A stretch of DNA of 64,000 nucleotides from Moniliella sp. 'wahieum' (taxonomy: Eukaryota), in contig RSEE01000042.1 of assembly GCA_003971905.1 (NCBI GenBank), forward strand, positions 1-64,000, in the 5' to 3' direction. Shown here piece after piece: positions 2,156 through 59,722 of the stretch (the first letter of the stretch is position 1; each line of letters begins with the position of its first letter). The position numbers were made by a program, and so were the translations under genes. The notes under the pieces were generated by a model. It was not told where the DNA came from. It saw nothing but the letters and a program-made list of their open reading frames with translations, and made no database searches.

Positions 2156-2156
2156 A

Positions 2157-3273: not shown

Positions 3274-5629
3274 CATGCCACACCAGTAATGTGGCGTCAT
3301 AGCCCTCATTTCCAATTTCTTCGTCCCGAGCGTCGATCTCGCTTTTTCCCTCTTTCTCTCTCTCCGCACCATGTCCTCTGAGATTGATGAGATCTGAGAT
3401 CCGCCGTCGCCTTAGCCCCGACTGTGACAGCCTAAGCACCCTTAGATCTTGAAGCTTGAAGTTATAAGGTTTAACTTTCAGCGCTCATCTCTCTTACAAA
3501 GCCTCATATTGTGACCCTTCTAGCTTCTCTCACTAGTCACTGTCTTTGGAATCACTTTCCACATCGCCTCTATGCCCAACGCCAAGCCTTTCTCCCACGC
3601 TCGCTGTCCAGCCCTCAGGCCTGAGCTCGGGCCTCTGAACCCTCAGTAGGTCTCATGCCTCAGGCCCTCAGGGCTCATTATCACTCCCCTCCATAGTTGA
3701 TGTTTGCAATGTGGGCTTGAAAAGGGATGAGTAATGCCGCAGGTTGCCCAACCTCTTTCACATTCTCAATTACAGTGTCGTGCTTCTCGCTCTGCAGTAC
3801 GCAGTGTCCAACGTCCAATATTCAACGTTCGCTAACTTCACTAGCCAATGCCCTTCGGCTCGTTGCCTCGTGTGTGCTCGGGGCTCTGCTAGTGGTTTCC
3901 GAGTAGTACGATTGTTAAATGTACATTCCGCGACGTGGTCTTGCCACGTACTCAGGTACTCAGGTACTCAGGTATTCAGTGCTCCCGCCGGGTTTATAGT
4001 TGCTGTGGCAGTGGCAAAAAGCATACTGGGTTTCAAATGCGGGGGGCGCGGGCTCTGGCAGCTCTGCCGCACGCTATCGACATGGAATATGGGCCGGGGA
4101 CCAGAGGGTCGAGGTCCTCTTCTTCTCATCCTTTGAAATTTGGTCGACGATCGACGCTCTGCAAGCTTCAATGCCTGCAATGGTCGCTGTCTGCCACGGG
4201 TACACCTGTCTGCACCTGTCTGCACCCATCATGCATCATGCATCAAGCTTCAAGAGATATATATGGTGGTGGTCTTGGCAGTGTTTGCCCAGTATGATAT
4301 ACTCAGAGTCTCCTCGGTCCGTTTCCCTCCCCGCTGGCACATTCCTAGTCACTTACAGGCCAAGGCCAATGAAATGAATAACCCCACCGGGCGCGACGCT
4401 TGGCCCCGCCCCACCGCCCACCACCGCGCTACACACATGGTGTGCATGGTGGCTGGCGATGTGCCAGCAGTGCGGTGCATACTTGAAGAGCAAAAACGAT
4501 TTCTTGCGGTTCGATGGCTGTGGGTCTGCACATGTGACCATGTTGGGCATTAGTATATCAGTCTGAATGCATGGTGGCCCCAGGTTACGTGGTGTGATCA
4601 TGTGATGCTCAGCGGGGGGAATGCAGGGCACACGATACGTCGGGCGTGTGGGAAGGGTGGACACGTTGCGGGTTGAGTGTTGAGTACTGAGTTGCTGATG
4701 CAACGCAACTGATGAGGCGGACTGGGTACTAGTGCGGAAGCTTGAAGGTTGCCACGTTGGCGATAGAGTGTTATAACCATGTTACGTTGATCAGGTCGAT
4801 CAGGTCCATACAGGGGAGCACAGATCACATGATCTGTCACATGTCCCAGCGATCCGCAGAGATCAACACCAGTGAACGAATGCTTCTGCGCCCGTGCCTG
4901 TGGTGCGGCGGCGGCACCCACACATCCTCGTGCGGTCGAACGCCGATGAAACGATGGACAGATGTGCCGAGGTCACTAGGCCACTAGTCTAGTCACTAGT
5001 CACTAGTTCACTGGTCTGTGGCACTAACATTGCACACTGGTGTGTGGCTAGGCCCTGTGGCCGGTGGCGACGGAGAGACCGCGACGGACATGGGGGCTGT
5101 CCCTCCCACTATCCTAACCGTTCCTGCCCCATCCTCAGGGGCTATTAGCTAGTGTCGGGGTTTCCTGTTGCTGGGCTGTCGTCTGGCGTCTGGGCTGGCC
5201 GCTGTGATCTGACGTCTGACGTGTGACATTGCCCCACGAGTGACATGTGACATGTGACGCCGACGCTGCCCAGCCAAACTTACCCTGCGACACTGTCCCC
5301 GCGCCAAAGCGGGGCTTGGCATGCCGCACACCGGCGCTGTGCGTTCCAGCGCCCCATAGGCACGGCGCCTGTGGCCCCCAGCCCCTGCCCCCCCCAGTGG
5401 GCGCAGCGGCGCGCACGGGCGCAGTGCTGTGGCGCGAGTATAATACACCCACTCTGGCCAGACCAGCTGCGACTGGTCCATCTCCCTTCTTACCTCTTAA
5501 CCCCCTCCCCTCCCCCACCTTCTTTGCTCTGCTGCGTGTCCTCTCTCACTCCGCCGCACCCTCTCTCCTTCTCCACCTCCACCCTCCTCCCACTCGCCCC
5601 GTCGTCTTTTGCCCACCTTCGTTTCCGCC

Positions 5630-7939
5630 ATGCGCGCCACAGTCTACGCGACCATCGCTGCGCTCTGCGCCCTGCCCTCGCCTCTGCCAACCAGGCCCAT
5701 TCCTCTCCCCACTTTGAGCGCCGAAACAAGCTTCCCACGCGCTTCCGTCCCGCCCGGCATCAGCTCGTCCGGCCAAGCCTTTGACGGTCAATCCTTTGAC
5801 TATGGTGCGTCTCTCTCTTTGTCCTTGGTCTTCCTCCAACGTACCGGAGCCCTCCCCCACGGGTATCCGTATACTGACGACGGTTGGATGGGTTTGCAGT
5901 GATCGTCGGTGGTGGTACTGCCGGTTTGACGGTTGCCACCGCTTGGCCCAGAACAGTTCCGTCACCGTGGCTGTGATTGAAGCTGGTATCAGTGGCGAAG
6001 GCGACACGACGCTTACCACTCCCAGTGGAATGGTATGTTTTCTCCTCTTGCACTCTGCCGTTGTAATCGGAAAGAACCAAATACTGACTTATTGTCTTGC
6101 CTCCAAACAACAGTTGTACAACTCGTCCGAACACACCAACAAGGATTGGGCCGATACTACGGTCAACCAGACGGTCTGGGCGGACGCGCTATCTACTACC
6201 CCGCGGCAAGGTTCTTGGTACGTTGTCTCTTTCTGATTCATCATACAGCTGACTGACATGCGTGCCTCGGACTTTCTTTTGACTCAGGCGGTTCGAGTGC
6301 CATCAATGGTATGTACCTTGTCCGTCAACCTGCCGTGGAGCAAGAGAGCTGGGCGAACATTGTATCCAGCATCAGCCGACGGCCAAGACGACCTGGGGAT
6401 GGACAATATGTTCGCAGCGATGAAGAAGTCGAGACGTTTGACCTCCGACAGACGATGTGGTTTCCACCGTGCAGTCTGGTGCGAAAGCCAATGTGCTTCA
6501 GTGGAACGCCTCTTCGCACGGCACATCGGGTGGGATCCATGCAGTTGGCCCGCCGTGTCGTTCCCGTCATTGGAGGGTTTTTGCAAGGCGCTTCTCCACG
6601 CTCAACTTGCCCATCAACAACGACCCTGACAGTGGTAACAATACCGGACCTTCCTCAGTACCTCGGCTATCAACCCGTCTAACTGGACCCGCCCCTTCTC
6701 TCGCGGGCTACGTCGACCCCTACGCGTACCCCAACTTGTACATCCTCGTCGGTTACCAGGCTACCAAGATCGTGTTTGACAACTCGTCGCCGCCGCGTGC
6801 GACGGGTGTGCAGTTTGCCAGCTCAGAGCAAGGACAAGGTGCGCCAAGTGAATGCCAAGAAGGAAATATCTTGTCGGCTGGTGTGGTGGGCTCGCCGCAG
6901 CTGCTGCAACTTTCAGGTGTCGGAGACTCGTCGGTACTTTCGCCCGTGGGCATCAAGCAGGTGGCCAACGTTCCCGGTGTCGGGTTCCACATGCAAGACC
7001 ACCTTAGTGGCGCTATCAACTACACTCCTGCTCCGGGTACCAGTTTGCCAGCTACGTCGATGACGGGTGAGCCAAGACGGACAGTTATGCGAATGCTGCG
7101 GTTGCGTATGTGCAGTTGGTACGGTGACGAACAAGGATGAGCTCATTGCCAACATTTCCTCGTCGATTGACCAGTGGGGTCGCGGCCTACAAGGCCCCGG
7201 CCACGGTGCAGGAAGGCTACCGTGCCGCTCTGAAGGAACTTACCACCAACATTTACCCCAATGATGCGCCTGCGATTGAGATTCTGTGGTTCATGGCGTT
7301 TGGCGGGATCACGGTGCAGTGTGGTTGCAACACCCTACCTCTCAGGGCTCTGTCAAGATTACCTCGAGCAATGCGTTTGACTGCCGGCTGTGGACCCTGC
7401 CTACCTGTTGAACAAGGTGGATCTGCAAGTCCTCCGCAACGGGTGCAAGTTGGCGCGGCAGATTGGCGAGTCGGATGCGGTCAAGCCGTTGTGGCTAACG
7501 AGACGTCTCCGGGAACGGCGGTGCAGAGCAACAAGCAATGGAACGCGTTTATCCAGCAAAGCTTTGCGACTGAGTACCATCCCAGCAGTTCGTGCGCTAT
7601 GATGCCGCTCGAACAGGGTGGCGTGGTGGACGACCGACTGCGCGTGTACAACACCCAGGGATTGCGTGTCATCGACGCCTCCGTCACCCATCACGTTCTC
7701 CCAGCACTTGCTTACGGTTACCTATGGCATTGCTGAGATTGGAGCCGACTTGATTGCGCAGGACAATGGCGCATCGCCTTCCTCCACTTCGCTCGCTGCA
7801 CCCACAGTCATCTGCTCTCTCCGCCTCACTCCACCGCCGCTCCTCGTCCAAGAAGGGCAGCCACAGTGGAGCTGGCACTTTGTCCGTCGGCATGCTCTTG
7901 CCCCTTGTGCTTGCCGCTGCCACGTACCACTTGGCTTAA
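5630..7939 (+). CDS. GMC (glucose-methanol-choline) oxidoreductase, AA3_2-like, secreted, putative GPI anchor
   Basis: Signal-like MRATVYATIAALCAL; FAD motif FDY-(intron 5805-5899)-VIVGGGTAGL..RLAQNSSVTVAVIEAG; GGSSAING; LSAGVVGSPQLLQLSGVG; PGVGFHMQDH; TEYHPSSSCAM..GGVVDDRLRVYNTQGLRVIDAS; SQHL; Ser-rich tail ending in hydrophobic GMLLPLVLAAATYHLA*. Further introns ~6033-6113 and ~6218-6288. Confidence 0.92.
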
Positions 7940-9040
7940 TTCCCTCCCTCCCCCGTCTCTGGCCCGCCCCCTCTTACTCTTCCGTACACGGTGTGACCGT
8001 TCCATTTCCTCCCCTCACTGTCACCCCCCTCCTCCCCGTTTGGTCTCTTTTTTTTGCCCTTCTGGCCGGTTCGGGCCTTACTTCTTATCTGTGCCTGGGT
8101 GGGGGGTTAGGATTGGTCTCTTGGTTTGACGTTTGCGGGGGCTGATCGATCTCAATCTCCCCACCTAATAACCAGTTGATCGTCCCCTCCCCTTCCCCAG
8201 CCCAAATTTTCGGTATGCCAGATGTGACGCATGTGACGGTGTGTTGCCAGCCACGGGCCGCTCTGTACTTCTTACTTTCTCCCGCTTACCGCTCACGCCC
8301 TTTGTGTTTGTTCCTGGCCTTTGTCCTTTGTCAGCTTTGGAGGCATTAGGCCATGGATGAACGACTCTTTGATGACTGGGATGATGATTGATGTCGATGA
8401 CCTCGCTCTCCCTCGCCTCCCTTCCCCCTCTACTGCCCCCCCCCTCCCCCTTTACTTGATGGTAGCGACGATTGAAACGACTTTAACTCTCTTTGGGGTG
8501 CGTACGGTACGTGCACCACCGTCCGGGTGCGTGATGGGTGGTGCCAAGGGCAGAAGATATGCAGGTTGCGGGTGAGAAGTAGTAGTGAGATGTGAGATGT
8601 GAGATGGCCAGGTGGGCGTCAAGCCTTCAAGCTGAACTTCAAGCTTCAAGCTTCAAGCGTGAAAGTTGAAAGTTGAACTGTGCACGCTATGACGTGCGCC
8701 CCCCGTGCAGCTGGGCTGGCCCCGCACCAATCGTTAATCATTAATCACGAGCGGTGGCTGCGAACCCGGGATTGCCACCACCCGAAGCCGGCTGTCGATG
8801 CGAGCTGGCACTCGCCACTACCCCTCTGCGCATCCTCTTGTTCGCCATCGCCCTCACGGTCACCCTCACGGCCACTTGGGCATCCCCCGCTCCGACTAGG
8901 TTTCGTGCGCTCCGCTTCCTCGCTGGTTCTGCGCATCGCCTTGTGTCTGTGCCTCGGTTTCCGTTTCCGGTTCCATTTCGGTGTCGGATCGCTTTCGCCT
9001 GCGCTCCGCTGCTTGCTCACCACGTGCACTTGTCCCCGTT

Positions 9041-10507
9041 ATGAGCACGAGCACGAACACGAGCACCCGTCTGCCCACCGGCTCGAGCGCGAGATACGCC
9101 TCGACCTACACGCCCCCGCCGCGTTGGGCCGACGTGGCCCTCGTAGCTCCCGGTATCGTGCGTGTCCTGGGTCAGAACCGGGTAAGTTTACCTCGAAGGC
9201 ACCAACACTTACCTGCTCTACCCGCCTGCCACCACCACCCTACCTCCACACCTCTACCACTCCTGCCTCCCCTGTGCCTGCCGTGCTCATCGATACGGGC
9301 GAGGGGAAACGAGGCCTACACAGCCCTCCTGCAGCGTGTGCTATTGGGGCTGGATACAGCGGATGGACAACCGATTGACCTGCCTACTTAAGCGACATGT
9401 ACGTTTCCATCCATTCTCTCCTCCCCTCCCCCCCCTGCACGCTTGCCTTGCTTGCCCTGCTTGCCTCTGGTAAGGATGAGGGTGGGGTGCAGGGTGTATG
9501 CGTTTAGGCATACGGACATGGCATGTGGGAATGGCATGAGGGCTAAGGGCTAAGGACCGGAACAGTATCTTGACGCACTGGCACCACGACCACGTGAATG
9601 GTTTGGCGGCCGTGTTGCAGCTCAACCGCGCGCTGCACCCAAGCACGCCCGCGCCCGGATCCATAAACTGCGCAACCCACACACCGATCCTAGCTTGGTC
9701 CAACGGCAGCTTGCGTCCCTGCCTCCCGGGCTTTTTCCCCGCCGGCCGAGTCTGGGTCGGGGGGTCGGGGTCGGGGTCTCTGCCCGGGACCCAGTCCGAG
9801 CCGAGTCCTCGTCCCAAGTCACAGTGGAAACGGCGATTCATGCCCTGGCGCACCAGACCAACGTAACGTTGTCCCCTTACTTTTCGCAGCGGGGCAGCGG
9901 GCCGATTCAGGTACTGCACACGCCCGGGCACACGGTGGACCATACCTGTCTGCTATGGGAGAGCGGCGGGGTCGAGGCACATGTTCTCGGGCGACCATGT
10001 TCTGGGAGCCGGGACGAGTGTGTTTGAGGATCTGGGCGCGTACATGGCGAGTCTGGAGGTATGCGAGCGGGTGCTGGCCAAGCAGGAGCAGGAGCGGAGC
10101 AAGGGCGGGCAGGGACGCAGCTGTTGCCGGGTCATGGGCCGGTGGTGCAGATGGACTGGGGCTGGTGCGGAGAGTACCACGCGCACCGGCTGGCGCGGGA
10201 GAAGGAGGTGGTCTTGGCGCTGCGTGATCGAGGGGAAATGACGCTGGAGGAGCTGGTACAGACGCTGTATGCGCGCGTACCCGCCGAGCCTGGGCGGCGG
10301 CAGGGCGTGGGCTGTGGCTGCACCTGCGCAAGCTGGCGGATGGGCGGCGGCGACGCGTGCGGCGTTATGGCGGGACAGTGGCGGCTGTGGGCGGCGGGCT
10401 GGGGCGCGAGGCGAGCGAGGCGCTGGAGACGCCCGAGACGCTGTCCAGGGCCGTGGGGAGCGCATGGCGGCGCAGCTGGGCCGCTCCCGCTGGCGGTGGA
10501 GGCGTAG
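9041..10507 (+). CDS. Metallo-beta-lactamase fold protein, LACTB2-like
   Basis: VRVLGQNPGKFT..GTNTYL, VLIDTGEG, THWHHDHVNG (HxHxDH), VLHTPGHTVDH, FSGDHVLGAGTSVFEDL..YMASL, LPGHGPVV, and C-terminal YHAHRLAREKEV..LVQTLY..HLRKL winged-helix-like region; probable intron ~9399-9565. Confidence 0.9.
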
Positions 10508-10773
10508 ACTGCGGAAATGGATCCTGCATCTGCATCTTATCTATCGGCCGGGGGGGCAGTATCCGGTGCGTCCAACCCACTTGGGCCGCGGCAGCCGGCC
10601 AGCAGGGGGGAACTGTTGGCCGCAATCAGCAATCAATTAATCAGTCACGCGTTAGTCACGAGTGCCATCCACAATCAGTAGCCACACCACCTGCCAGGGG
10701 GGGTTGGGTAGCCCACCACCCCCACTACCACCACCACCACCACCACACCACCACCACTCTCTCCACCCCCACC

Positions 10774-18818: not shown

Positions 18819-18852
<34 letters not shown>

Positions 18853-18861
18853 GAACCAGAA

Positions 18862-18904
<43 letters not shown>

Positions 18905-19928: not shown

Positions 19929-20646
19929 GGCCAGCAGGCAGGAGCCCACGGATGGGAGTGAGGGGGGGGGAGGGGTGGAGGGGTGGAGAGAGGGCAGATG
20001 GATGGATGGTTGGACGGATGGAGGGACGGATGGAGGGACGGATGGAGGGACGGATGGAGGGACAGATGGTTGGATGGATGGAGACAGGCCAGGTACGGTG
20101 ATGTTACTACGGGGTGTGTGCGAGACGCATGTGGGTCCCAACGTACCCATCCATCCTGTGTGCTAGGCGGAGGCAGGAGGGGGCAGAGCAGAACAGGTAC
20201 GGGTGGGTTAGCGCGTCGCCTGCTCGGGTGGAGGAAGCACCGGTGGCTTGTCGCTCCGTGGCCATGCAATATGCCCCCAAGAAGTATGTATTTTCCTCTG
20301 GTTGTACTTGTGTGCACGTGCGCATCCCCTCGTCTGCCACACACGCACCAACCCTAGCGTGCGCCCACCTCCCATGTCCCATGTCCCATGTCCCATGTCA
20401 CATGTCACACGTGATGATATGGGCCTTGCCGCTGGCAGTCTGTGACATGCAAGGCCAGTGGCAACCAAGCGTCCCATGGCCCCATCCATCCTCGTCCACC
20501 ACCCATCGAGGGGGTGTTGCAGCGTGCGCCTACCGACGCCCTCGCCAGCCTACATACCGTGGCAGTGGACGTGCGTGCTTTCCCTGAGGCCTGATGGCCC
20601 TAGGCGCCCACATGGTGCTGGCCCATGTGGAGCGAGCACATCGACG

Positions 20647-20680
<34 letters not shown>

Positions 20681-21135
20681 CGCACAGAAGAGGAGGATGG
20701 AGGATGGAGGATGGATGAGGTGCCACTGCCAGGCACGCACGTAGGGTTGTGCATTTGCATTGCCCATTGTGCACCCTGAGCCTGACATGTGACATGCGTC
20801 GAAAGAGATCAACACACGCCGACGACGCGCGCTGTGCCTGCCGCGTCCGGGGGGGCGGGAGAGTGGGTGTGCCAGGGCAGCTGCGCACGGGTGTCTCAGG
20901 CAGCGCCACACGCCGCGCTGGCCAGCACTCCCCGTGGCAGCCTGCCCTGCCGCAGTAGGGTTGTTGCCTTGCCTCGCCGTTCGCCCACCCACGTCCCACC
21001 ACCTGTGCGCTGGCAGCTGGCACCCAGCGCAGCACCTCCTCCATCTCCCATCTCCCATTCATCCTCCCTCCTCCTTCTTCCCCGCCTCCTCCTTCTCCTC
21101 CTCCTCCTTCTCCTTCCCCCCCCCGTTCGCTCCCC

Positions 21136-22241: not shown

Positions 22242-22272
<31 letters not shown>

Positions 22273-28296: not shown

Positions 28297-29198
28297 CCCA
28301 GCGCGCGGCCGAGGGGTACCGGTTACGGTACGCTTACTGGTTACCGGTTATTAGATGGCTTGTTTGTGGTCGAGTGGCCTCCACAGGGGTACATTGGTTT
28401 ACCCCGCACCTACCCTACCCTCCACCCGGGTGTTGAAGCTTGAAGCTTGAAGTTGCACCGGCTCCAGGCTCTGCTCCGACGACCGACGGCACGGAGGTAA
28501 CGGGGTTAATCAAAACAAAATAGGGTCTGTCGCAACCATCTCGCTCAAGAATGAAGCTTGAGGCCTTGAGCCCGAGACCTCTGACGGCTGTGTTTGCTTG
28601 TGCTCCTACACTGTTATAGCCCTTGTGGGGTTTATTATTATTCCTTTCTCCCCCTGCACAGCCATCTGGGGTCGGAAGCCAACCCACCAGCCACTGCTGT
28701 GGCGCTGAGCCTCTGCTCAGCTGGCGCCTAAGTTCAATATTTACATGTCAGTTGCCACGCTGCCGCTCCAGCCATATACACTTAGTGGATGCCCACGGAA
28801 GAACCCTTGAATCAAGCTAATCAAGCCATCAAAGAGGGGTATATGTACACTATATACGTAGCCCACTGCACTGCAGGACTCATGTACTCATACCTCTCGG
28901 TCTCTGTGCATGAGTACTAAGACTGAGTCTCAGTACTCAAAACTCAGAACTCAGAACTCAGACTCAGAACTCAGAACTCAGGAATCAGGACTCAGAACAA
29001 AGTCTGTGAGCACTCTGATCGAAACACTCGCGCTCTCGTACTCCGACTTGAAGCTTAAGGACATACGAAAGACGCAGTACGGTTGGGGGTCTCTCGTATA
29101 GTGTTAAAACATGTATCGGCTTTCCTTTGGATCAATGGTTACCGATTACCCGGTTACTGGTTACCTGTTACCAGTTACCGGGTAACGTTGACCCGCGG

Positions 29199-29323
29199 TG
29201 AAGCTGAAGCTTGAAGCTTGAAGCTTGAATAAAAGCTAGAGGCTTATTGAAGCTTGAAGCTTATTGAAGCTTGAATAAAAGCTAGAGCTTATTGAAGCTT
29301 GAATAAAAGCTAGAAGCTTGAGC
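29199..29323. repeat. Compound AAGCTT-based array with higher-order unit TTGAAGCTTGAATAAAAGCTAGA
   Basis: GAAGCTT heptamers plus 3 copies of TGAAGCTTGAATAAAAGCTAGA; preceded by GGTTACC/GTTACCA heptamers (29138-29190) and CTCAGAA heptamers (28935-28997). Confidence 0.9.
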
Positions 29324-32300
29324 TGTGACATGTGTGGTGGTCCCCCAGTCCCAACACATGGAACCCAACCCGCGAGAGTCGAAATCTGAATCTCAATCTG
29401 AATTGAGTCTGAATCTGAATCTGGTGGAGCCAATCAAGCGACCCAAATAGGACCGGCATTGGTCAAATCCAATGAAGCCATCTTCGATATTTCCACTCGA
29501 AAAAACAACAGAGATCGAGGTCGAGGCCAGAAGGGAACCGAGGGAAGTGACCTAGTGACATGTGACATGGGACACCTGAAACCGAGTTTCCATGTCGCCT
29601 ATTTGGCGCCCACAAGCGGGTATGGGTATTGCGGCGTGGTGGTCGGTGGATCGGATACATGCACCCTCTGACTCCGGTTCCCAAGCCTCAACATCAAAAG
29701 CTTCAAGCTTAAAAAGAGGGCTTGCAGTACAAGAACTCAGCTAAGCCCTTCCATGCGCTATTATTATAACAAGCTTAGCGCTACCCTTCTCGCTAAGATC
29801 GTCAACGCTAAAGCCGCACAGGGACAGCACTCCCAGATTGAAATCAGGTGCAAAAGGTCGTACATGGGACAAACGGGCGTCGCCCCCCGTCCATCTACTG
29901 CACTGGGCTCAAATTCAAATGAGAGCGGTGCATGGTTGGCTCTGGGTCAAAAAGGGTTGTCATTGTGGATCTGTGGGCATCAGACATAATGCATCAGGTG
30001 GATGCCTTCGGCTTTTACCTTGCTTCTTACGGTCCGGTGCATGGAATCGATGAACGGATAGAATCCCTGCTGCCACGTAAATCGATCTCTACGTATGTAG
30101 TATTGGATCGAAGAGTATATCGCAGGGTATAGGATGTAGTGACTAGTAGAGTACCAATCCATCTAGTTCCTCATATTGTAATGTTGCGGTTCCGGAAACA
30201 ATTACAGTAAGATAGAAGGAAAGGGGGAGGAACCGGTGGCAAAAGCTTTTGAAGCTTGAAGTTGTTAAAGCGTGAGCAAGTTAGAGGCTGAAGCTCTGAA
30301 ACTCTTGTTGCCTTTGAAGCGTGAAAAGCTTTAAAGCTTGAAGCTTGTAGAGGATCCACCCTGCAAGCTCGAGAGCCACATCCGTCGCAGCCTACAGGGA
30401 AAGGAAAGGGTGCTGGCCGGACGCAATACTTTTATGAAGATGTTTACCTTTCGGTATCATTCGGTAAATAACCAACTCGGTTCAGTATATTAATCGGGGT
30501 TTTCGGAGCTCAGCGCCTCAGACCAGTACCCCTATTAGCATCAGGCTCGGGCCTCAGGGCCTGAGCCTCAGGAGGCTTCAAGCAGCTACCTTCAAGCTTC
30601 AGTCTTCAGCGCCGTCAACTTTCAACCTTCAAGAAACACCATACATGAGATCTGAGATCTGAGATTTCATGATACCCTAGAACTCCACCAGGGGGCGCGA
30701 TATGCTGCGCAATGGGATCTGTACTTAATGACCCCCACGGCTTGGCAAGAACCACCTGACATGTGATGCATTTCGTCGACCGTCGTCGGAGTCAGCTGGT
30801 CCTGCATCATGATGCGCATCAAGGAACAAGGTCCAATCAACTAGATCACTGAGTACTGAGTACACTGAGTACTGAAGTTGGTACCGAGTACTACTCCGAG
30901 CGGTGAGTAGTGAGCTACCCTGATGCACCTGATGGCGGAGAGCCTGGCCGGAGATACGGAAACGGGATATGTGGGCGGTGGAGCGGAGCAAGTCCAGACG
31001 ACGCGCAAGGCCTAAGGCCTGTAAGTAAGGCGTAAGGCGTAGTAAGGCGTAAGGAACTACGAACTAGGAACTTGGAACAAGTACTAACCGGACTAACCGG
31101 ACTATCCAGTCTAAGAAGGGCTAGGGTTCTAAGAATGTATATATTAATGGGCGTAGTAGTGATGTCGCGCGTAGTAACAGAGAGACAAGTGCGTTGGTCG
31201 GAATTGCCAATTGGACGGGACCGTTGGCGGGCGGCTATGGATAAATTACAAGACACGAAAAAAGGTGGAGTGAGAGAACGCTTGCATATGGCGTAACTAG
31301 AAATCGGCAGTCTGCTGACTAAGTCGGGTCACGCGATCACGATCAGGCCTCAGGCCCTGAGGGCCTCAGGCCTTAGTCCTCCGGTCGCCTCGGTGCGGCG
31401 CTGGGAAGATATGGAGCTGGATTTGAAAAACGAGTTACTGTAGGCGCTTGAAGAGCTTGACGCGCTTGAAGCTTGAAGAGTAATTGAGTTCCCAGTGGCT
31501 GCCCAGAAAGCGACGCTGGGGACGCAAGAAGAGATGACGAGATGAACCGATCCGTGGTCGATGAGAGTGACTTTATCTGAGACGCCTGAGGGCGGACGGT
31601 GACGCGGTGACGGTCTCTCGTCGATACCATGACGCATCATGCATCATGTCAGGAACATCTATCTGCAATGCTTAATGCATGCTCCAAAGATGGATGACTA
31701 CGTGAGTCAACTCGAGGCTTGATGTCGTGTATATGTCCCCCAAAAACGCTCACTTCCAGGTCAAGTTTCAAAACTTAAGAGCTTCATATCTGAATCTGAC
31801 TCTAGTCAGATTACCCTTGTTGGTAGGCATTAGATCGACCTTATCTGTCGTACGTTGACGTTTTGCCCGGTACAGAGCGAATCGGGACAGTGGCAGTGTC
31901 TTTGCGTGAGACCACGACAGACACTCCTGAACACTCCTCTTTGGCTTCGACATCATTGACTTGGAATGATATTGACATCAGGCCTCAGGGCCTCAGGCCT
32001 CAACACGGCCCCCAGGGTCTCACCAATCACCGATCATGTGGGCTAGTTGATACACACCCAGTGTCACTATGTCACCGCTCACCACATCTGTTGATTACCA
32101 GCGTCACTATCCCCCTCCCCGCCTTCCGTCGTGCTGTTGTCGCCATTTGCTATAGGATCTAGCCTCTGCCCACCTACAATTGCCAAGCGACCAGGGGTGT
32201 AGGTTGGTGTGGCCAAAAGTGGTGACCGGGGTGACCGGTGGCACCGGTGCCATGATGCGAGACGTGATGGACAAAAGACGTTCCCTTCAAGCTTTACATG

Positions 32301-35300
32301 TCTATATGATGCACTTATCTATGGCGCCTACGTTCTGTGAATCGGGATCAGAAGACTGATTTGAAGCCTATAGAGCTAGAAGGACTAGAATATCCAACAG
32401 TACATATTGCGCTAGAGTGCGCTTTGGTCTTCCTAATCGAATGCGCAAATGCGTCTTAAACACGTACGATTCCATCCATTAAAGCTTCTCGGTTACTCTG
32501 ACTTTGTACGACCGAAGGAAACCCACGGATTCGCGTGGAGAACCTCTGGAAATTGCAGGGCAAATGCAATCATGACGGGGAGGTTAAGGCCAAAGGTCTA
32601 AGCCTTTTGCCACAGCAAGAGGCGATGGGGGGTCGAACAAGTCGGAGTATTAGTCACGTGGAGGCTTCGGAGGTCAAATAATTAAAGGCCTAAGGCTTAA
32701 GAGCTTAAGGGGAAAAGGGTGATGACCGATAACGCACCTTGGCTTACAGTATACGGGGCCACGGGTCCCAACAGTTTTGTGAGCACTAAGCCGCGGTGCG
32801 ATCCGTTGAGTAATTAAACCATCAAGCTACTCAATCTATAATGCTCTACCAGGCTCTCTATCTACTCTACCATATACCATGGCAGGCCACGATTGACTAG
32901 TAAGTACTGAGTAGTGCTAGTGATTGTGGCTGGCTGCCTGGTCACATGGTCACAGTGACTATAGGGACCATACGATCGACATGCTGACACTGTGACACGT
33001 CACATGTCACGAGGTCCATCGTGCATGTCACACATGTCACACGCCAATTCACATTTTGCTTTCTTCAGACGTTCAACGTACTCAACGTATAAAACGTCCA
33101 TCGATCAATCATCGAAATCATCTCAGATCTCATCGATCATCCCGCTCTCCAATGCACGATAGAGGCGATGTTTGCAAAGCGTTGGAAGCTAAGCTTGCTC
33201 TCGACTTCGGCGAGCTTGATCGAGATTCCCTCTCGCTCACGATATGTTCCTCACTGGGACCACTTCCATCATTCGCGCATTAGCTAGTACCTGCATTAGC
33301 GCGTAGCGCTTAGCAGTAATACCTTGTCCCTGCAGTGGGACGCGATCGCCTTTATCCTAGCCACACCCGATCGGCGGCATCGCGAGAGATTGGGTGACAT
33401 ATGACATGTGACAGTCTTCGGTTTGAAACGTGCAGGTAGTCGCATGTTGACACTTTACTAGCTTTACTGTTTAACGTTTAGCCAGGAAAAACGTTTGTAC
33501 GGAGTCTCAGTACTGAGCCAATGCACATGTCGCGAGTACGAGTGCCTCAGTACTGAAGGTTGGTTCGTGCCTAACCGCTTGGGGGGGAGAGGCGGGGGGG
33601 GGGATGAAAACGATCAAGAAAAACATGTGTGTAACAAACGTAACATTAAGCATGGTACCGAATGCATGACGTGTGTGCTGCTGAATACCTTTGATGGTGG
33701 CACTGTTGGACAGAGGAGTGGCTAGTAGTCCGCTCTCTGGGATTGAACAACGGTGATCGATTTGATCGATGGTCTCTCCTATGTAGGCCCCGTGTCGGAG
33801 CGTGTGCCTGCTCGCGCGCGATCGAAGATATTAGATCTTAGATCTTAGATCACTAGTCACTTTCTTCTCTCTCTTTGATGGGACAAAGGATTTACAGGCT
33901 CACGAGATCTCTTCCGATATGTTGACATCCGTCCTAGGACCGCGCGGACCCTGAGTCACGTGAGTCAGCTTTCATTCCTTCCGAGCTCGCACCAGTCTTC
34001 TGGACGAGTCAGTCGCAGAAGCTTCTTAGTCAAATACGACGTTCAGTGCTCACATTCTGTGGTAGTAGCGAGGCCGACACGATATATGATAGGCAATAGA
34101 TCCGGAGCGCAGAATGATGCTAGAGCCCAATTCCATCCACACTCACCTCTGCGCCTCTGCAACGCGGCTCTGCAGCCCTCGTTCGTCTCTCCTCAGGCCT
34201 CTCATTAATCGTTGGCCTCACCATCCCCTCTCCCCTCAGGCCTCCGAACGACTCTAGACTTGAGAGGTCTTCCGGCCTCCTCCAAGGCCTCAGCTGGGGC
34301 CCTGAAGCGAGTGAAAAGCGCGAGCCACCATTTTACAAAAGAATTGCGAGTCGTGTGTAGCGTATGTGAACGTATTATCATACACACCTGCAAGCCCAAC
34401 GCAGGGCCCGCCAAGCCATCTATCACGTGCGGCGTCCCAGCTGGAACCGATCGAGCGAGAGTGAGACTTGCATGAGAAGCGCATTGCCAAGAGTACAACA
34501 CAAATTATACCCAAGGCCCAATGGTCACTGTAGTTGGCCTACAATGCATAATGGCCAATTGTGTATTGGCCAATCATCTACAATCTCACCGTGGCCCAGT
34601 GGCCCTGGCTTGCTGTGGCATATGTGACGGTGCGTGTTGATACGTAACAGTTCGATGGTCAGTCCAAGTCAATATTCAATCGAGAGTGGAGCCGAGGTGG
34701 AAGATGGCGGAGGTAAGGGCCAGATGATGAAGGAGTATGGGCATAGGCAGTAGGGAGCATGGCGCTTGGAACAGGAGATCTGAGAGGTCGTGGTCCAATA
34801 TCAAAACACGTTCGACGTTTTGCGACCAGACTACGAGATACAAAGACACCGCCAAACCAAATTCAATCACAACCAATTGATCATTGGATCATGCATCCAT
34901 CCTGAATCATTAATCACATCTCCGACTTGTAGGGCGTCCTCAGGCCTCAGGCATGGCCTCAGGCCGGTTAGGCCGATCATCGATCAACCAGGGCACAGTA
35001 ACTCGTCTACTCCGTACGTCGGTGAAATACTCAGACTACTGAGTACTGACCTATATTCAGTTCTCACACATGTGCGCCAAGGTCCTCTCTCTGTTTTCAT
35101 TACCTCTTGCGCTACAACGTCGCCCAGCTTGGCGCCCCGATCGATCACGTGCGTCGTGTGCTGATGGAGGGGTCTGTGTGCGGAGTCCCACTTGTGATTT
35201 GTGATGCATGCTTCAACAGCTTCAACCAGCTCATTAATCTTTGCATCACATGCATCACAAAAGTTGATCAAGTCACTCACTATTCACATGATTCACACAT

Positions 35301-36043
35301 CCCACCCAGCCCATCCTCGCCTGCATCTCCGATCAGCGTTCAGCCTCAGCGCGCGATCAGCTCAAGCACCCAGCCTGATCTCAATGTAAGAGGGGGGAGC
35401 CTTCCGACACACGAGTAAGCTCTCCGTGGGTGGCTCTTGGGGGATGCAAGATGGACGACAGGCAAGGCAGAGTGGAGCTTTGAAACACGGTGAGCATTAT
35501 ATTATTACTGAATAGCAGCGCCAAGCCTTCTGCGGGATGCTGAGGCTTGCTCAGCGCGCTCAGCCTGTGAATATAATGCAGCCTGGGGTCTGGGACGTCT
35601 CCAGACTGAGTTGTGCATTGTTGTTCCGCGGTCCAGCGCTCAGCTCAGCTCCGAGGGGCAGCGCGGGGGGAGTCTGGGCCTGAGGGCCTGAGATCTGGGA
35701 ACAACCGTGGGGCACCGTCACGCGTCAAACCTGAGGCCCTGGGGCCTGATGGTGAGCCTGATGGAGCAGAGCCCACAGGAGTCTCTTCTCCCCTTGTCTG
35801 CATGTCACCGCACGAGGGTCACCCATTGACTAACTGCATTACATGGTACGTTTGCTAGTTATTCGTTACTAGTTACTAGTTACCACCAGTTACTAGTTAC
35901 TCTAGTGGCCAGGTACTCCATAACTCAATCAATACTCAGTACATCTCAGGACTCAGTCTGAGTACTCATTGTATTCAGTCTGTGTGCTCACAGTACTCGT
36001 GCAGTCTGGAGTATTCTCGCCATCAGTCACTAGCCACTCGTCC

Positions 36044-36104
36044 CTTCAAGCTTCAAGCTTCAAGCTTCAAGCTTCAAGCTTCAAGCTTCAAGCTTCAAGC
36101 TTCA
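36044..36104. repeat. (CTTCAAG)8 heptamer array containing AAGCTT palindromes
   Basis: Eight perfect CTTCAAG copies plus a partial copy; the longest perfect member of the intergenic heptamer family. Confidence 0.97.
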
Positions 36105-37403
36105 CTAGCTCCACTAGGGACTAGTAGCAGGCACCCTAGTCCTTGATGCTTGAAGCTTGAGGGCTTGAGCGATGATCGATGGTCAGTGACTAGGTGGCTA
36201 GTGATTAATGGTGACTTGTAGCCAAAGCCACTAAGGCACAGGCTACGTCACTAGTCACTCGTCACCGCGTCACCGTGACCACTCAAGTCACTCACTTGTT
36301 ACTAGTTACTCGTCAGCAGTCACGTATATAGTCACTAGACGCAAGTGCTGATTTAGCCGCCCAACATGCTTTGTGGGGAGAGGGACTTGGGGAGCCGCAA
36401 GGACCAAACCCTGGGACGATTGGCAATTGCCAATTATTGGACTGGCTTTGCGCACCGTCCCGCTCGTTGCTGCCTCGGCCTTTCCCCCTGCGCTCCCACG
36501 GCCTCTCCGCAGGCCGCACCCTGCAGAAGGCTGGAATTTGTTATGCCACACCGCCCTGCTACACTCTGCCCACAAACTCTGCAGCCCGGCGTTACGGTTC
36601 CGGTGGCGCTCAGCCCTTGGTGCTCATGCACCAACGCTGTCTGCCCTCGCCAAAGTACGGGATGCCTATCGGTATTGACAATGGCCATCACCCGCCTCAT
36701 CGTCCCGATCCCATCATCCCAGGGTGCCGCTAATCATTTGCTGTGTTTTTCTCGTGTGTCCAACAGTTGTCTCGCAGCACGAACCTGCCAATGTCCGGGT
36801 CAGGAACCCGATGGCGTTGGCAGCCAGCGGCAGTAGCTAGCTGTGCGCTCCGTTCTCGAAGCTATCTGAGATCTGGGTCTGAGAGCGGCCGTAGCAGTTG
36901 CTCGTTCTTACACGTTGCGTTATATCGATTGCGACTGCGCCCCTCCCCCCCCCCACTCTTTTTCTTTTCATCTCTTGTGCGTGGAACATGCCAAACTGCG
37001 TTGCCTCTTGTAGCTTGGCACAGAGACACAGAGCCTATAGCCCCCCCCTCCCCCCTTACCCGATTCAGGTCCCCGTGCAGGGCTCAGTCGCGCTCACCGT
37101 TCAATATTCAATGCTCAACACGATTCACCGTTGACAGGGCCAAACTCAGACCAGACTTGGACTTCAGGGCACTTTGACCGGTTGAGCTTTGACCACCCCA
37201 GATTCAGTACTCAGTCTCAGACGCGGGCTCCGCATGGTTGCAAGGCCCCCCGCCTTTTCTTAGCTCCACCACCATTGCTTTCGCCACTATCATACGCTGC
37301 GCTACACGTTGGGTACTTTAGCGTGCAGATCTGACCGTGTGTCCTTGCGCTGCCTGTGTTTGCTGTTTGCTTGCAGCGGCCCCCTTGTCTGCGAAACGTC
37401 TCC

Positions 37404-51289: not shown

Positions 51290-52532
51290 TCAAAAGTCCT
51301 CGTCGAGGGTAAAGGTGTGCGTGTCCTTGGCCACGCCGTCGCCATCGTCATTCTCATTGTGGTTCACGCCCGCAATCGTATACTCCGCCACCTTCTTCTC
51401 GAAAAAGTTCGTCTTGCCCTGGAGCGAAATGTTCTCCATAAAGTCAAACGGATTGGCCGCATGGTAGATCTTGTCGTTGCCCAGCGCCACCAGCAGCCGG
51501 TCCGCCACAAACTCAATGTACTGGCACATCAGCTTCGCGTTCATCCCAATCAACGCCACCGGCAACGCATCCGTCAGGAACGACTGCTCAATCGCCACCG
51601 CTTCCGAGATGATCAGCCGAATCGTATCCGGGTGCGCACGTTTGCGCAGATGCGCAAACAGCAAGCACGCAAAGTCGGTATGCAACCCTTCGTCCCGCGT
51701 GATGAGCTCGTTGGAAAACGTCAGGCCCGGCATCAACCCACGCTTTTTCATCCAAAAGATCGACGCAAACGAGCCCGAGAAAAAAATGCCTTCGACCGCG
51801 GCAAACGCAACCAAGCGTTCCGAGTATGACGCGCGTTTGTCCTCGATCCACCGCAGCGCCCATTCCGCTTTTTGCTTCACCACCGGAATGGTCTCAATCG
51901 CATCAAACAGGTACTCTCGTTGCGCTGGATCACGGATGTACGTGTCAATCAACAACGAGTAGGTTTCCGAATGGATGTTCTCCATCATGATCTGGAACCC
52001 ATAAAAGCACCGTGCCTCGGCCGATTGCACCTCTTGCGAAAAGTTCGCAACCAAATTCTCATTCACAATCCCATCCGACGCAGCAAAAAAGGCCAACACG
52101 TGCGAAATAAAGTGCCGCTCATTGTCGTTGAGCTTGGTGTCCCAGTCGTGCAAGTCTTTCGACAAGTCCATCTCCTCAGCCGTCCAGAAGGAGGCTTCGG
52201 CTTTCTTGTAGAACTGCCAGATCTGCGCTCGTGCGTCAGCAAGGCTAATAAACCAGGGCAAAGGGAAGAGGGGGGGTTATAGAGAAAGAGAGAAAACTGA
52301 CCTCGTTGAATTGGATGGGGAAAAGAACAAAGCGCCGCGGGTTGACCTTCAGCAACGGTTCCTCCGACTCGGGCAAGTCCACCTCGCCTACGAACCGATG
52401 TTCAATCGAGTCGAGCGGGTGCGGGCCGAGGGCCGCCTGGGCCGTGGCTCGCTTGGCCCGGTCCACCGCGTCCATGTTGAGCTTGGCAAACTCGGGGTGA
52501 GCATCGTCGTGCGGGATGGAGGACGCAGACAT
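51290..52532 (-). CDS. RNR2: Ribonucleotide reductase small (R2) subunit
   Basis: [16 protein letters not shown](intron 52223-52301)[65 protein letters not shown]-terminal FTLDEDF*. Confidence 0.98.
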
Positions 52533-52870: not shown

Positions 52871-53415
52871 GACGCGACGCGACGCGGCGCGACGCGTTTG
52901 GTCGCCGCCATCGCGCACTCAATTCTTCGCGCAAAATCAGCGCATGGCCGCACCTGCTCGTACTACTATGGTAGGACCTTGTACTGGGCGCGTGTGGTGG
53001 TGTAGTTGGTTCGGATCTGGTGTGGTCCCACTGTGGTACTTGAAGCTTGACCCTTCGCCGAGTTTTCTTCCCCTCCTTCCCTTCTTCCCGTTCTTCTCTT
53101 CTTCCCTCCGGCCTCCGTGCCGCTTTGGCGGTGGGTATATGTTAGGATGGGTGACCTGCTATAGGCCAGCGTGTGCGAGAATGGGTTGATTCAACCACCG
53201 TATATGGGTGTTGGTCGACTTTGCTGTTTGGACCCTTTAGGCCTACTAGTAGTTTAACAAGCTTCAAGGTAAACTTATCGCTTAAAGCTTAACGCGTAAC
53301 GCGTAACGCATAACGTCTTGTTCCGGTACGTTGAACGCGTCGGTGTCAAACTCAAAGAAGAGAGGTGGGAAGTAAAGCCTAACTAAGGCATTTTTGCAGT
53401 GCTGGATTAACGCGT
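52871..53415. promoter_or_regulatory. Cluster of MCB-like (ACGCGT) elements upstream of RNR2
   Basis: Perfect ACGCGT at 52892, 53292, 53299, 53335 and 53410, plus tandem GACGC(G) repeats at 52871-52897; MCB/MBF control of RNR genes is established in yeasts. Confidence 0.6.
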
Positions 53416-54499
53416 AACATTTAACGTTTAACGTTTATAACCTCCCCCTGAGGACCTGAGATCTGAGACCCGGGTTGTGAGAGATCGGACGATTCCATCC
53501 CGCCCCGCCCCGCTTCGCCCCCTTGTCTGTCGAACTTGTGTTACACGACAAGTTACTTCTAGCAGCGCAATCAATATTCATGCACATGCAGTTCTTTGTT
53601 CTTTTGTACCAGAACTATAATCTCCGACTTCCCTAGTACTACTCCGGGTGCACGTCGCACTTACAGTCATTTTGTGCGCCCTCTGTTCCCAGATCCCATT
53701 TTGTTCATGCCTACTACATTGGCGCGCTTGTACGTGGCCAGGGGTGCATGAAGTTTCATGCGACAAGCTTCAAGCGACAATGCGACAAGCTTCAACATCT
53801 TTCTTCGATATGGCACCACATGCTACGTCGAACGCCGAATGTCTAACGTCGAACAGCAACCGGTGAACTCGATGAACGTTATGTACGCGTTATTTATGAA
53901 CAACAAAAATGGAAACACGATCCCAGCATCCAGCTTCCAGCATCCAACATCCAGCTTCCAGCGTGCGTGTGCATCCGTGACAAGGGAGAAAAATACATAT
54001 GGCACCTGTAGTACCCAATCCTCCGACAAGAACGAGGGGCCACGCGCAGCAGCGTCCAACGCCATCGGGCGCGAAACGTTCCTGCTCACGGCGAGGAGAG
54101 TCGGGAAGCGACCAGGGGGACAAAGAAAGTGGGGAAACAAGAGGAGGGGCGGAGCGCGGGGGGGGGAAGCAAAAGCTGTGAGGGCAGGGGGAAGGGGCGC
54201 AAGAGTGGTGCAACAGCGAGGGGGACAGGAAGAAAGGGAAAGAGAGAAGAGGAGAGGTCGTAGCAGAGGGGGAGAGGAGGGAGAGAGAGAAAAGGACGGA
54301 TCGAGTAGGGGAAGGGAATATAATGTACCCCCCACACCTTCTCGTGGCTTGGTGATCCCCATGTGCAATGATGAGTGTTGTGGTTGCCTGACCGCCGCCA
54401 GACAACTACCAACCAACAGCTGCATCCAACACCGTCTCGAGCGCACCCGCACCCATACCCATTCACCCGCATGCACCCACCACTCCACCCCCCCCCCCC

Positions 54500-57227: not shown

Positions 57228-59722
57228 GGTGGTGTGGCAAGGGAGGGGAGATCGGAGAGGCGGGGGTCGAAGCAAGTGCACCGGCAGAGGGCGGCAACTA
57301 GTGGGATATATCTGGGCAAAGCAAGCGTACGTCGGTATGTATGTGTACGTTCCTAGCGCCGTGCGATGGATTGCTGGGTGCCGGTGCTGGGTGGTATGCT
57401 CCGAGGGACGCTGGATCGAGTGCTGGCTGTTAGCTGTGCTGGCTCGGGCGAGTGCAGCGGCTATGCGCTATGGCGAATTGATAGTGATCCTCTGAATCAG
57501 CGCCGTCTTGGCATCTACACTGCCCGTATGCCCCCGCTTGAAGATCAGGAAGAGGGGCAGTGTGCATGCGGGGGTGCCTAGGCCGCAGCCTGCACCCACG
57601 TTCTTATCAGTGGAGGGCCAGGCACAGGGCAGTGGTGTGCTGCGGGGTCGCGGGCAGCGGGGGGGGAGCGCGGGGGGCAGCAGCAGGCGGCTCTCAGCTG
57701 CTCTCGGCAGCCAAATGGCCGAGGCCGCTGCGATGCCGCCGCGCCCCGCTCCGCAGCAGTGTGCCTCTGCCCCGCACGATGGGGGGTGGATGATCCCCGA
57801 CATTTGATTATCGATAGGCCAAAATAAGATAACCCCGCAGTCCTAGTCGTTGCAAGGGGACGCGTGGCACGTGACGAGGGCAGCAGCACCAGCGCAGTGT
57901 GGAGACAGCTGAAAGGAGCACGCCACTGGTGCGAGCGCTCGCGCAGTCGAGTCGCGTCCTCCCTCCCGAGTGCTCCCCGAGCACTCCCCCCGCTGCGGTG
58001 GGTTGGGCACGGCCAATCCCACGCGTGGACAAGCGAAGAGAGTGGGCCATCGCTGCAGCAGGCAAGCAGAAGCACGGGCACGGGGCAAGTTGTGTGTTGT
58101 TGGATTAGCCCACGTGTCGTTCATCTCTTATTGCTATCGCTTCCCCCCTCCCGCTGCGGCCAGCCAGCGCTACTGGGTGTTGGTACATATGATGGGCCAG
58201 CGCACGGGTGGCGTGGTGGCGGCAGAGCGCTCATATCATAGGAAGTAGTACCTAGTACCCACACCGCATCCCACTGCACACTACTCCCCCGCATCCACAT
58301 CCCCTCTCGGCTAAGAGGATGTAGGATCTAGACCCTCCTCCCCTGGCCGTTGCCATCCATTCTTCTCGCGCCAGATGGACCAACGCGTGGCACATTCCTC
58401 CCCCAACCACTCCTCTCCAATACATGACCGCCCCCCACCCGTATACTTCTGGCCACACTCTCTTCCCTATCATATCTTCCCATTCCCGTTGGCATATCTA
58501 TCACCCCCCCCCCCTCCCATCTGCTCTTCGTGCAACGTGCACCGTGAACCTTGAGGGCTATCTTCGTGGTCACAGTCGCTTGTCTGCATCCCCACAACAC
58601 TCGTCCAGCCCATTTGGTTCCGAAGGCCTACTACCATCAATTGAAGCAATACTCAAGAACGTATCAACAACTACGTATCCTCCGTATCAACGTTCAACGT
58701 CCTATCTATCAGAGGCCACAGGCGCAAGGCCTACTAAGACTGGAAGCTGGATTGGTAATCGATAATCGAGATAATCGACGATCATCAACGTTCAACGTTC
58801 AACGTTCAACCCCCCCCCCCGGCCTACCGATGATACGGGGCTCACATATGTGTGTGAACATGTGTGGGCAGGTGTGGGCCCGTTGTTGCGCCAGGGAGTC
58901 GAACTGTGGTCCTAATCCGAGAGCCTGGCCCCGACTGCTCATTAGCTTCACTGCAAGCTTTTCAAGCTTCAAGCAAAAGGCGCTCAAGCAAAAGGACTGA
59001 GTTGGCTCAGTGAGTTACTAAGTTACTGAGTATTGAGTACAGAGTTCTCAGTCAGTTAGATAGGTTTTGCCAATTACTAGTTACTTGGATAACTGTGATG
59101 CCTATGTGATGGCGGATCATCGATGATCGATGATTCTCACACGGACAGCTGAAAGATAAGTTTATCAGCGAATGGGAAACGGGATCATCGGATGCGCATG
59201 CGCGTAAGCGTAAAGCTTGAAAAGCTTGAAGCTGGTGACGCGTGACGCGTGAAGCTAGCTCGTGGAGCATACAGAGCTCAGCTGAGGAAGAGGAAACCCA
59301 CACCCCACTGCCCCCCAAACAAACCGCCCAAACACAAAGGAACGCAGACACCCGAGAGAGGACGAGGATGAGAGCACGAGAGCACGAGAACACGAGCACG
59401 AGAAACGAGAAGACAAAAGGCTATATATAGCCTCCGTAGTGCCACACCACTGCGTCTCAGAACCTCACTAGTAGGGTGTGTCTGTAGCTGGAAGCGATCA
59501 TTAAGTTCCTAGGTTGCATGCCATTATCGATTATCAGTCTACTGGCTCGCTAACGTCATCGATCACCTGCTACATGTGTGTCACAACAAAATGATTGAAG
59601 ACTGTCTCTGTATGGGGACAGCATGCACGCCCATGAAGCTCTCGGACTAGGACTGGCGCGATGCCTGATGCCTGAGAGATGTGAGTCCCACAAAGTTAGA
59701 TCTACCAGGCACAGGGAACGTG

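Follow-up and report, generated by a model that had tools for sequence, protein, structure and literature searches.

What kind of process fills the spacers of a fungal genome with seven-base repeats made from many different palindromes? The question is raised by a 64-kb stretch of Moniliella sp. 'wahieum' DNA (contig RSEE01000042.1, positions 1 to 64,000; the window), the non-coding parts of which carry short tandem arrays. A preliminary description had proposed that each unit is a 6-bp palindrome beginning with A and ending with T (written A....T below) plus one spacer nucleotide, so that neighboring units meet at a T-N-A junction every 7 bp. We analyzed the window together with contigs fetched for comparison. 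The array pattern itself was confirmed and lies far beyond chance. We see about an even chance that these arrays are quasi-palindromic heptanucleotide microsatellites of non-coding DNA, typical of a basidiomycete lineage, made by mutation and changed by slippage.

We defined a perfect array as at least 2 units and at least 14 nt and scanned periods 4 to 12 across the window. Period 7 was the commonest of these, with 70 perfect arrays compared to 3.5 expected from an order-3 Markov model; there were 64 arrays of period 6, 22 of period 8, and 19 of period 9. The period-7 arrays span 2.0 to 8.7 units, and, as head-to-tail copies of a 1- to 9-bp unit, all 70 have the structure of microsatellites. 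A 6-bp palindrome plus 1 nt forms the unit in 36 of them, where 7.7 would be expected (p = 8e-17); these 36 units are as close to their own reverse complement as a heptamer can be. No unit of such maximal self-complementarity occurs among the 64 period-6, 22 period-8, and 19 period-9 arrays. The palindromes are also strongly polar: 34 arrays are A....T, one is G....C, one is C....G, and none is T....A (p = 1e-18). The claim that the palindrome always runs from A to T holds for 34 of the 36 and fails for GACGTC (5208) and CAGCTG (21009).

Single hexamers tell the same story. The window has 321 A....T hexamer palindromes compared to 167 expected under an order-1 Markov model (z 12.7) or 192 under order-3 (z 9.4), while C....G and T....A palindromes are at expectation and G....C palindromes are below it, in line with the predicted enrichment of the A....T class over the others. 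A neighbor with at most 2 mismatches lies at +/-7 for 134 of the 321, versus 11-16% in the other classes. The remaining 187 match expectation, and the excess is wholly in period-7 context. A second copy of the hexamer stands 7 bp away in 27 A....T cases and in none of any other class, and 7-base odd palindromes centered on T-N-A number 318 against 160 expected.

The unit can be written more exactly than was first proposed. The spacer had been described as free to be any base; in the 34 A....T arrays it is G in 14, C in 13, T in 4, and A in 3, and this preference for G or C (27/34, p = 0.001 relative to the G+C content of the array-bearing zones) refutes that freedom. With a spacer that is mostly G or C, T-S-A followed by a 4-bp palindrome is the better notation for the unit. 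The 34 perfect A....T arrays use eleven different hexamers, AAGCTT being the most frequent (9 arrays). We considered whether C-to-T changes could have turned G....C words into A....T words, or 5mC deamination could have removed TCG; the words with an inner CG (ACGCGT, ATCGAT, and AACGTT) are intact, and half-converted arrays are few. Several period-8 arrays, e.g., GGCCTCAG and GGGCCTGA, have a T-S-A joint too. Array starts fall in phases 3-5, the second half of the hexamer, in 25 of 34 cases; ends fall in phases 0-2 in 17 of 34, which does not mirror the starts. On one strand or the other, T-N-A is always a stop codon (TGA or TAA), and period 7 spreads it over the three frames.

Non-palindromic heptamer arrays had been thought mostly to keep the A....T frame. 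This is the case for 8 of the 13 units with one complementary pair broken, but the non-palindromic set of 34 arrays as a whole (2, 1, and 0 complementary pairs kept in 13, 14, and 7 arrays) is no nearer to palindromes than random heptamers are. Different A....T palindromes can also abut in register. There are 10 such cases at offset 7 compared to 1-3 at offsets 6 and 8-13, and 8 of the 10 differ by one complementary pair, where independent double substitution would give about 3-4.5. This excess over independent decay is suggestive only.

The palindromic arrays cluster in six zones totaling 12.55 kb and drawn after the arrays had been seen: 3.3-5.3, 8.3-8.8, 20.3-21.05, 28.3-36.3, 53.2-53.65, and 58.6-59.45 kb. 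The zones contain 51 arrays of period 7, and 1, 7, and 8 arrays of periods 6, 8, and 9, respectively; the 63 period-6 arrays outside them are found in many cases in repeat-rich DNA at 13-24 kb, near an open reading frame (ORF) for a Sec7-domain protein. Bases in a 6-of-7-or-better period-7 self-match make up 16.6% of the zones and 3.6% of the DNA elsewhere. All 36 palindromic arrays lie clear of ORFs with a Pfam match. The richest zone is an ORF-poor 8 kb of about 50% G+C (28300..36300), which holds 20 of the 34 perfect A....T arrays and a single stop-to-stop ORF of at least 135 amino acids. The array positions given earlier that we checked lie within a few bases of where they were placed. ACCGGT at 28338 and AGCGCT near 33300 are present, though only as degenerate arrays; ATCGAT at 36170 is a partial two-unit array; and ACCGGT at 32223 turned out to repeat with period 9-10 instead of 7. 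The catalogue below carries no strand (.) and is based on perfect period-7 arrays unless stated otherwise.

3388..3401, AGATCT+G, 2.0 units
3448..3461, AAGCTT+G, 2.0 units
4227..4245, ATGCAT+C, 2.7 units, then in register AAGCTT+C
4989..5007, ACTAGT+C, 2.7 units
5208..5222, GACGTC+T, 2.1 units, one of the two palindromic arrays outside the A....T class
5240..5258, ACATGT+G, 2.7 units
8585..8606, AGATGT+G, 3.1 units, non-palindromic with the A....T frame kept
8637..8658, AAGCTT+C, 3.1 units, then in register AAGCGT+G and AAAGTT+G (2.6 units), to 8677
8734..8747, ATTAAT+C, 2.0 units
20370..20409, CCATGT+C, 4.3 units (outer pair broken, yet expanded), into in-register ACATGT+C, 2.3 units
20783..20796, ACATGT+G, 2.0 units
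21009..21022, CAGCTG+G, 2.0 units, the other palindromic array outside the A....T class
28433..28452, AAGCTT+G, 2.9 units
28941..28981, AGAACT+C, two adjoining arrays of 3.1 and 2.9 units, non-palindromic, no predicted fold
29205..29262, AAGCTT+G, 3.6 units (29205-29229) and 2.3 units, inside a higher-order repeat reaching about 29320
29555..29569, ACATGT+G, 2.1 units
30334..30347, AAGCTT+G, 2.0 units
30646..30665, AGATCT+G, 2.9 units
30848..30863, AGTACT+G, 2.3 units
31007..31041, AGGCCT+A, 2.0 units (31007-31020), then AGGCGT+A, 2.4 units
31343..31356, AGGCCT+C, 2.0 units, then CCTGAGG/CCTCAGG units with the spacer alternating between C and G
31464..31478, AAGCTT+G, 2.1 units
31634..31648, ATGCAT+C, 2.1 units
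31989..32002, AGGCCT+C, 2.0 units
33831..33851, AGATCT+T, 3.0 units
34938..34952, AGGCCT+C, 2.1 units
35865..35901, ACTAGT+T, 2.7 and 2.0 units
36044..36104, AAGCTT+C, 8.7 units, the longest array
53290..53309, ACGCGT+A, 2.9 units, about 0.6 kb upstream of the minus-strand RNR2 ORFs
53420..53437, AACGTT+T, 2.6 units
58687..58700, AACGTT+C, 2.0 units
58756..58769, ATCGAT+A, 2.0 units
58785..58810, AACGTT+C, 3.7 units
58961..58974, AAGCTT+C, 2.0 units
59119..59134, ATCGAT+G, 2.3 units
59235..59252, ACGCGT+G, 2.6 units

Are these copies of one element? A self-BLAST of the window found similarity between arrays alone and never between their flanks. Since only the arrays are alike, they are independent loci, and we rejected a dispersed repeat family. 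We then looked at 63 imperfect in-register units that flank perfect cores. Mismatch rates were 0.22-0.33 at each of the 7 positions, and no constraint on the T, S, and A positions was seen in these decaying units, which kept them no better than the inner bases. The arrays look as if they are born perfect and then decay freely. One array of CCATGT+C, which had lost its outer A, still reached 4.3 units beside ACATGT+C, as generic slippage predicts. With 11 hexamers in 34 arrays, no shared flanks, and even decay over the seven positions, a shared mutational process fits better than selected binding sites. The preliminary description had argued against a single sequence-specific factor and had offered a shared generating process as one of two explanations, and our data agree with it on both points.

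How might such a process work? The explanation we favor would begin with a local tandem duplication of 7 bp, followed by replication slippage as in other microsatellites. Period 7 would be favored generally, as it is in many bacteria. Self-complementary units may have an additional advantage while an array is being born or is still growing from a small size: a slipped strand or a two-unit flap could fold back, with a T-S-A triloop on a 5-bp stem, and escape removal. The odd period would leave one mismatch per 7 bp, and in this way the instability of perfect palindromes may be avoided. Such a protective mismatch would fit the absence of tandem arrays of plain 6-bp palindromes among the period-6 arrays (0/64).

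We examined the predicted folds. Every single strand of four palindrome-plus-N units is predicted to form a 5-bp stem with a 3-nt loop at the odd center, a mismatch, and a 6-bp stem; in the A....T class this loop is T-N-A. The earlier suggestion that arrays can fold into hairpins agrees with the predictions for the long tracts at 36044-36104 (-16.7 kcal/mol, z -7.1 relative to shuffles) and 29198-29262 (-15.4 kcal/mol, z -5.0). Of the single arrays, only the longest, with 8.7 units, has a strong predicted fold-back. Arrays of 2-3.7 units have predicted folds no better than those of shuffles (z -0.2 to -1.1 for four arrays of 2.9-3.7 units), and the mixed tract at 4227-4260 has a z of +0.2.

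Several of these results, and some limits of the data, weigh against the favored explanation. The arrays of 2-3.7 units reach just -1.7 to -5.2 kcal/mol (z -0.2 to -1.1). At equal G+C, the mean fold energies from a nearest-neighbor model are -7.25 kcal/mol (A....T) and -7.30 kcal/mol (T....A), with G....C and C....G more stable. We rejected hairpin stability as the cause of the polarity, since the model gives A....T no advantage while 34 A....T and 0 T....A arrays are observed. As modeled, hairpin stability explains neither the polarity nor the birth of short arrays. A DNA loop with a pyrimidine at its 5' side and a purine at its 3' side folds better than one closed the other way round; this would exclude A-N-T and G-N-C, but not C-N-G. 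The restriction to 5'-T-N-A-3' junctions, rather than A-N-T, G-N-C, or C-N-G, is not derivable from the fold-back model. Palindromic arrays are also not clearly longer than non-palindromic ones. The changes in unit number described below were all seen in contigs of other organisms. Finally, the zones are post hoc, and the gene map consists of Pfam matches to stop-to-stop ORFs only.

The same grammar is found in metagenome contigs, Agaricomycete ones among them. We scanned metagenome contigs for (AAGCTTC)3 and obtained at least 121 loci, most of which carry the seed word AAGCTTC alone. Among the matches listed, several contigs of about 50% G+C have further A....T heptamer arrays. Contig L077 has AGATCT, ACCGGT, and more AAGCTT arrays; L046 has AACGTT, and ATCGAT adjoining AAGCTT in register; L011 has AACGTT adjoining AAGCTT; L085, L088, and L115 have ACGCGT, AGCGCT, and ATCGAT, respectively; and L026/L040 has AAGCTT followed by a period-8 AACGTT array. 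L077 is Lactarius-like, with a helicase fragment 85% identical to that of L. psammicola; the matches of L046 bear Agaricomycete names only (24 named among 28); and L064 and L069, which belong to the same record series, have fungal-type genes (ICE2 and polyketide synthase). Among the matches listed, the palindromic arrays other than AAGCTT are 8 of the A....T class and 7 of other classes. The contigs with these 7 vary in composition, and two of the 7 come from the fungal-type L025 and L064; array density in the listed contigs is far below that of the window. Outside the window, then, the A....T rule is a strong bias and not an absolute one.

These contigs also allowed us to follow unit number. 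In L077, two paralogous upstream copies differ by a 7-bp insertion/deletion in a CTGAGAT array and a 14-bp one in a GAAGCT[T/C] array, and (GAAGCTT)3 is present in one paralogous copy and absent from the other. Unit numbers also differ between L038 and L120, which are 94% identical. Between L026 and L040 (99.1% identical), no difference was found across the compared array region. At 1200-19900, L077 contains at least three tandem copies of the helicase (AAA_11) gene with its upstream region, which amount to a natural experiment in how arrays are gained and lost.

As a control, we scanned prokaryotic genomes for (AAGCTTC)3 and obtained at least 122 loci, largely from Pseudomonas, Stutzerimonas, and Xanthomonas. 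Among the matches listed, the other period-7 arrays at these loci are 122 non-palindromic, 5 G....C, 4 T....A, 2 C....G, and 0 A....T, many of the non-palindromic ones having the form AAGCTNN. Since none of these 133 listed arrays is A....T, bacteria share period 7 and the word AAGCTTC with the window, but not the palindrome rule. The prokaryotic (AAGCTTC)n arrays, 3-12 units long among the matches listed (L122-L243), often stand beside AAGCTGC, AAGCTCG, and AAGCTAG arrays. The commonest word of the window arrays, AAGCTT, is accordingly also a bacterial heptamer repeat.

A bolder version of the mutational explanation, which we think rather unlikely, is that a dedicated process with a polarity of its own keeps seeding the non-coding DNA of basidiomycetes with units made of T-S-A and a 4-bp palindrome, which slippage then only lengthens. 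The seeding could be, for example, DNA synthesis that copies the opposite strand, or a hairpin, at a T-N-A nick, or it could be the work of an unrecognized nuclease or transposase-derived activity. If true, dedicated seeding would count as a new mutational mechanism and would account for a visible part of the spacers, namely the 16.6% of zone bases in near-perfect period-7 context.

Pfam matches, together with the relatives of its RNR2, identify the window as nuclear DNA from a fungus of the Ustilaginomycotina. In a sequence search, the best named relatives of RNR2 were Ustilaginomycotina with 82-84% identity (Pseudozyma flocculosa, Testicularia, Thecaphora, Ceraceosorus, Ustilago, and Tilletiaria), and the highest identity to any record was 95%. 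The earlier guess of a smut-type fungus proved sound. Its Pfam-based features include:

46397-50954, minus strand, chitin synthase fused to a myosin motor
51293-52276, minus strand, ribonucleotide reductase small subunit (RNR2)
60000-63720, minus strand, degenerate copia-type retrotransposon with integrase, GAG-pre-integrase, and RVT_2 matches over several broken frames

Further Pfam matches point to tubulin, the Sec7-domain protein, a GMC oxidoreductase, two amino-acid transporters, and tetrahydrofolate (THF) dehydrogenase/cyclohydrolase. No Rfam families or tRNAs were found in the 64-kb window.

Could the arrays be cis-elements kept by selection in promoters and spacers, acting as symmetric binding sites or through their shape, cruciform formation, or exclusion of nucleosomes? 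We consider this unlikely. It would suit the position of every palindromic array outside Pfam-matched ORFs, and the positions of two arrays count in its favor. About 0.6 kb upstream of the RNR2 ORFs, three tandem ACGCGT words stand at 7-bp spacing (53290-53309; also 53285). ACGCGT is what we take to be the MluI cell-cycle box, a driver of DNA-synthesis genes in yeasts. This array may reflect co-option or coincidence; the second ACGCGT array, at 59235-59252, has no DNA-synthesis gene neighbor like RNR2. In both paralogous copies of L077, a TATA-like TTTTATAG precedes the CTGAGAT array by about 15 nt, but unit number differs between these paralogous promoters. Complementary-pair neighbors, 8 of 67 distance-2 pairs at offset 7 and 0 at other offsets, slightly exceed independent decay. 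On the other side, selected sites would hardly come in 11 words that share no more than the outer A/T and the spacer class, and the uniform decay of the 63 flanking units leaves nothing visibly conserved. Moreover, the densest arrays fill the ORF-poor 8-kb stretch at no fixed distance from genes, and the short arrays have little predicted structure.

We find it very doubtful that the units are written by an enzyme cutting at T-N-A, either a transposon that leaves 7-bp duplications or footprints, or a hairpin-forming nuclease followed by P-type repair. Such an enzyme would account for a constant junction and 7-bp register around four inner bases that differ from array to array. Target duplications of the form T-N-A or T-W-A characterize IS1031-type and PIF/Harbinger transposons, and short palindromes are left behind by hAT-type excision. 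Two tandem copies of xyT-N-Ay'x' automatically yield an A....T hexamer at the joint; 12 of the 34 A....T arrays are exactly two units long, as after a single target duplication; and T-N-A-centered 7-bp odd palindromes outside arrays number 191 against about 147 expected. However, the window contains no inverted-repeat element with 7-bp target duplications. Its 13 candidates with T-N-A-type 3-bp duplications have arms of just 10-16 nt, several being array words, and none is convincing. The copia-type retrotransposon is the sole mobile element recognized. At least 11 inner tetranucleotides are too many to be residues of transposon termini, arrays reach 8.7 units, paralogues differ by whole units without any element, and start and end phases are spread over the unit. 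The earlier proposal of nicks at T-N-A or P-nucleotide-like repair thus finds nothing in the window that points to it.

A sequencing or assembly artifact, or a by-product of base composition, is extremely improbable, since the arrays are 14-61 nt long, which we take to be shorter than one sequencing read, order-1 and order-3 Markov models fail to reproduce them, the pattern is specific in class (34 A....T to 2 others) and in period, and like arrays occur in independent metagenome assemblies (L077, L046, L011, L085, L088, L115, and L026/L040).

We then compared the arrays with known repeats. Passages of Rehm et al. 2015 (PMC4692102), who draw on a survey by Mrazek et al. 2007, describe intergenic heptamer repeats in bacteria, GGGAATC in Xanthomonas and GGGGAYT in Nostoc, and put a bacterial preference for period 7 on record. 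They also relay the idea that seven bases is the stretch of DNA held by the polymerase. As far as these passages go, the bacterial repeats share with ours period 7, intergenic position at many loci, and length and sequence that vary among close relatives; some arrangements form stem-loops, and an origin from the polymerase footprint or from slippage has been proposed. They differ in consisting of one or a few G-rich, quadruplex-capable, non-palindromic words per genome, with hairpins formed from two opposed arrays. The window arrays have the over-representation of period 7 (51 in the zones versus 1, 7, and 8 at periods 6, 8, and 9), but instead of a few G-rich words they use many, each an A....T palindrome plus one base, in a eukaryotic host. 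None of the 11 palindromic words contains a G-run.

Other comparisons are to eukaryotic repeats and to transposons. Eukaryotic microsatellites are short head-to-tail units in non-coding DNA and include variable tandem repeats in promoters; the window arrays share with them neutral decay, and like arrays in the fetched contigs also gain and lose whole units. To our knowledge, units longer than 6 bp are usually left out of fungal microsatellite surveys, and we know of no rule of unit symmetry or polarity in the usual description of microsatellites. Hairpin-forming repeats such as CTG/CAG and AT-rich palindromes are likewise self-complementary tracts with regularly spaced mismatches that fold back as single strands, but the window arrays have another unit length, are mostly too short to fold stably, and show no disease-type expansion. 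Transposon footprints (PIF/Harbinger T-W-A, IS1031-type T-N-A, and hAT) share the fixed T-N-A and the variable short palindromes. They differ from the window arrays, which are multi-unit, and have at least 11 inner tetranucleotides, and from the L077 paralogues, in which whole units are inserted or deleted without an element; no terminal-inverted-repeat element flanked by a duplicated word was found in the window.

The preliminary description knew of no account of this rule. Our searches of open-access full texts, supplements excluded, likewise turned up no report of such palindromic heptamers from fungi, although motif tables of fungal genome papers could hold the motif. Apparently, what is new is the rule of symmetry and polarity imposed on heptanucleotide microsatellites; heptamer repeats as such were already known. 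Should the rule extend to the whole genome and to Basidiomycota at large, it would be a clean, countable signature of an unknown bias in the birth of short repeats. The 34 to 2 polarity, which nearest-neighbor folding does not predict, would give a handle on that birth, the least understood step in the life of a microsatellite, and on why period 7 turns up in bacteria and fungi alike. Heptamer arrays may have gone uncounted in fungal surveys. They may serve as polymorphic markers for smut-type fungi, and in promoters changes in unit number could alter expression.

Two further observations concern repeats in the window. Runs of CCTCAGG and CCTGAGG, whose center alternates between C and G, build longer near-perfect palindromes at 30540-30575, 31343-31372, and 35660-35760; the alternation hints at occasional inversion of a unit rather than direct duplication. 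The region at 13300-24100 is G+C-rich and dense in repeats with periods of 6, 12, and 18 bp (such as AGAACC x24 at 18784-18924), with long homopolymers in or near it (G23 at 15433, G18 at 19006, and C15 at 13260). It surrounds the minus-strand Sec7-domain ORF and probably includes long low-complexity coding tracts.

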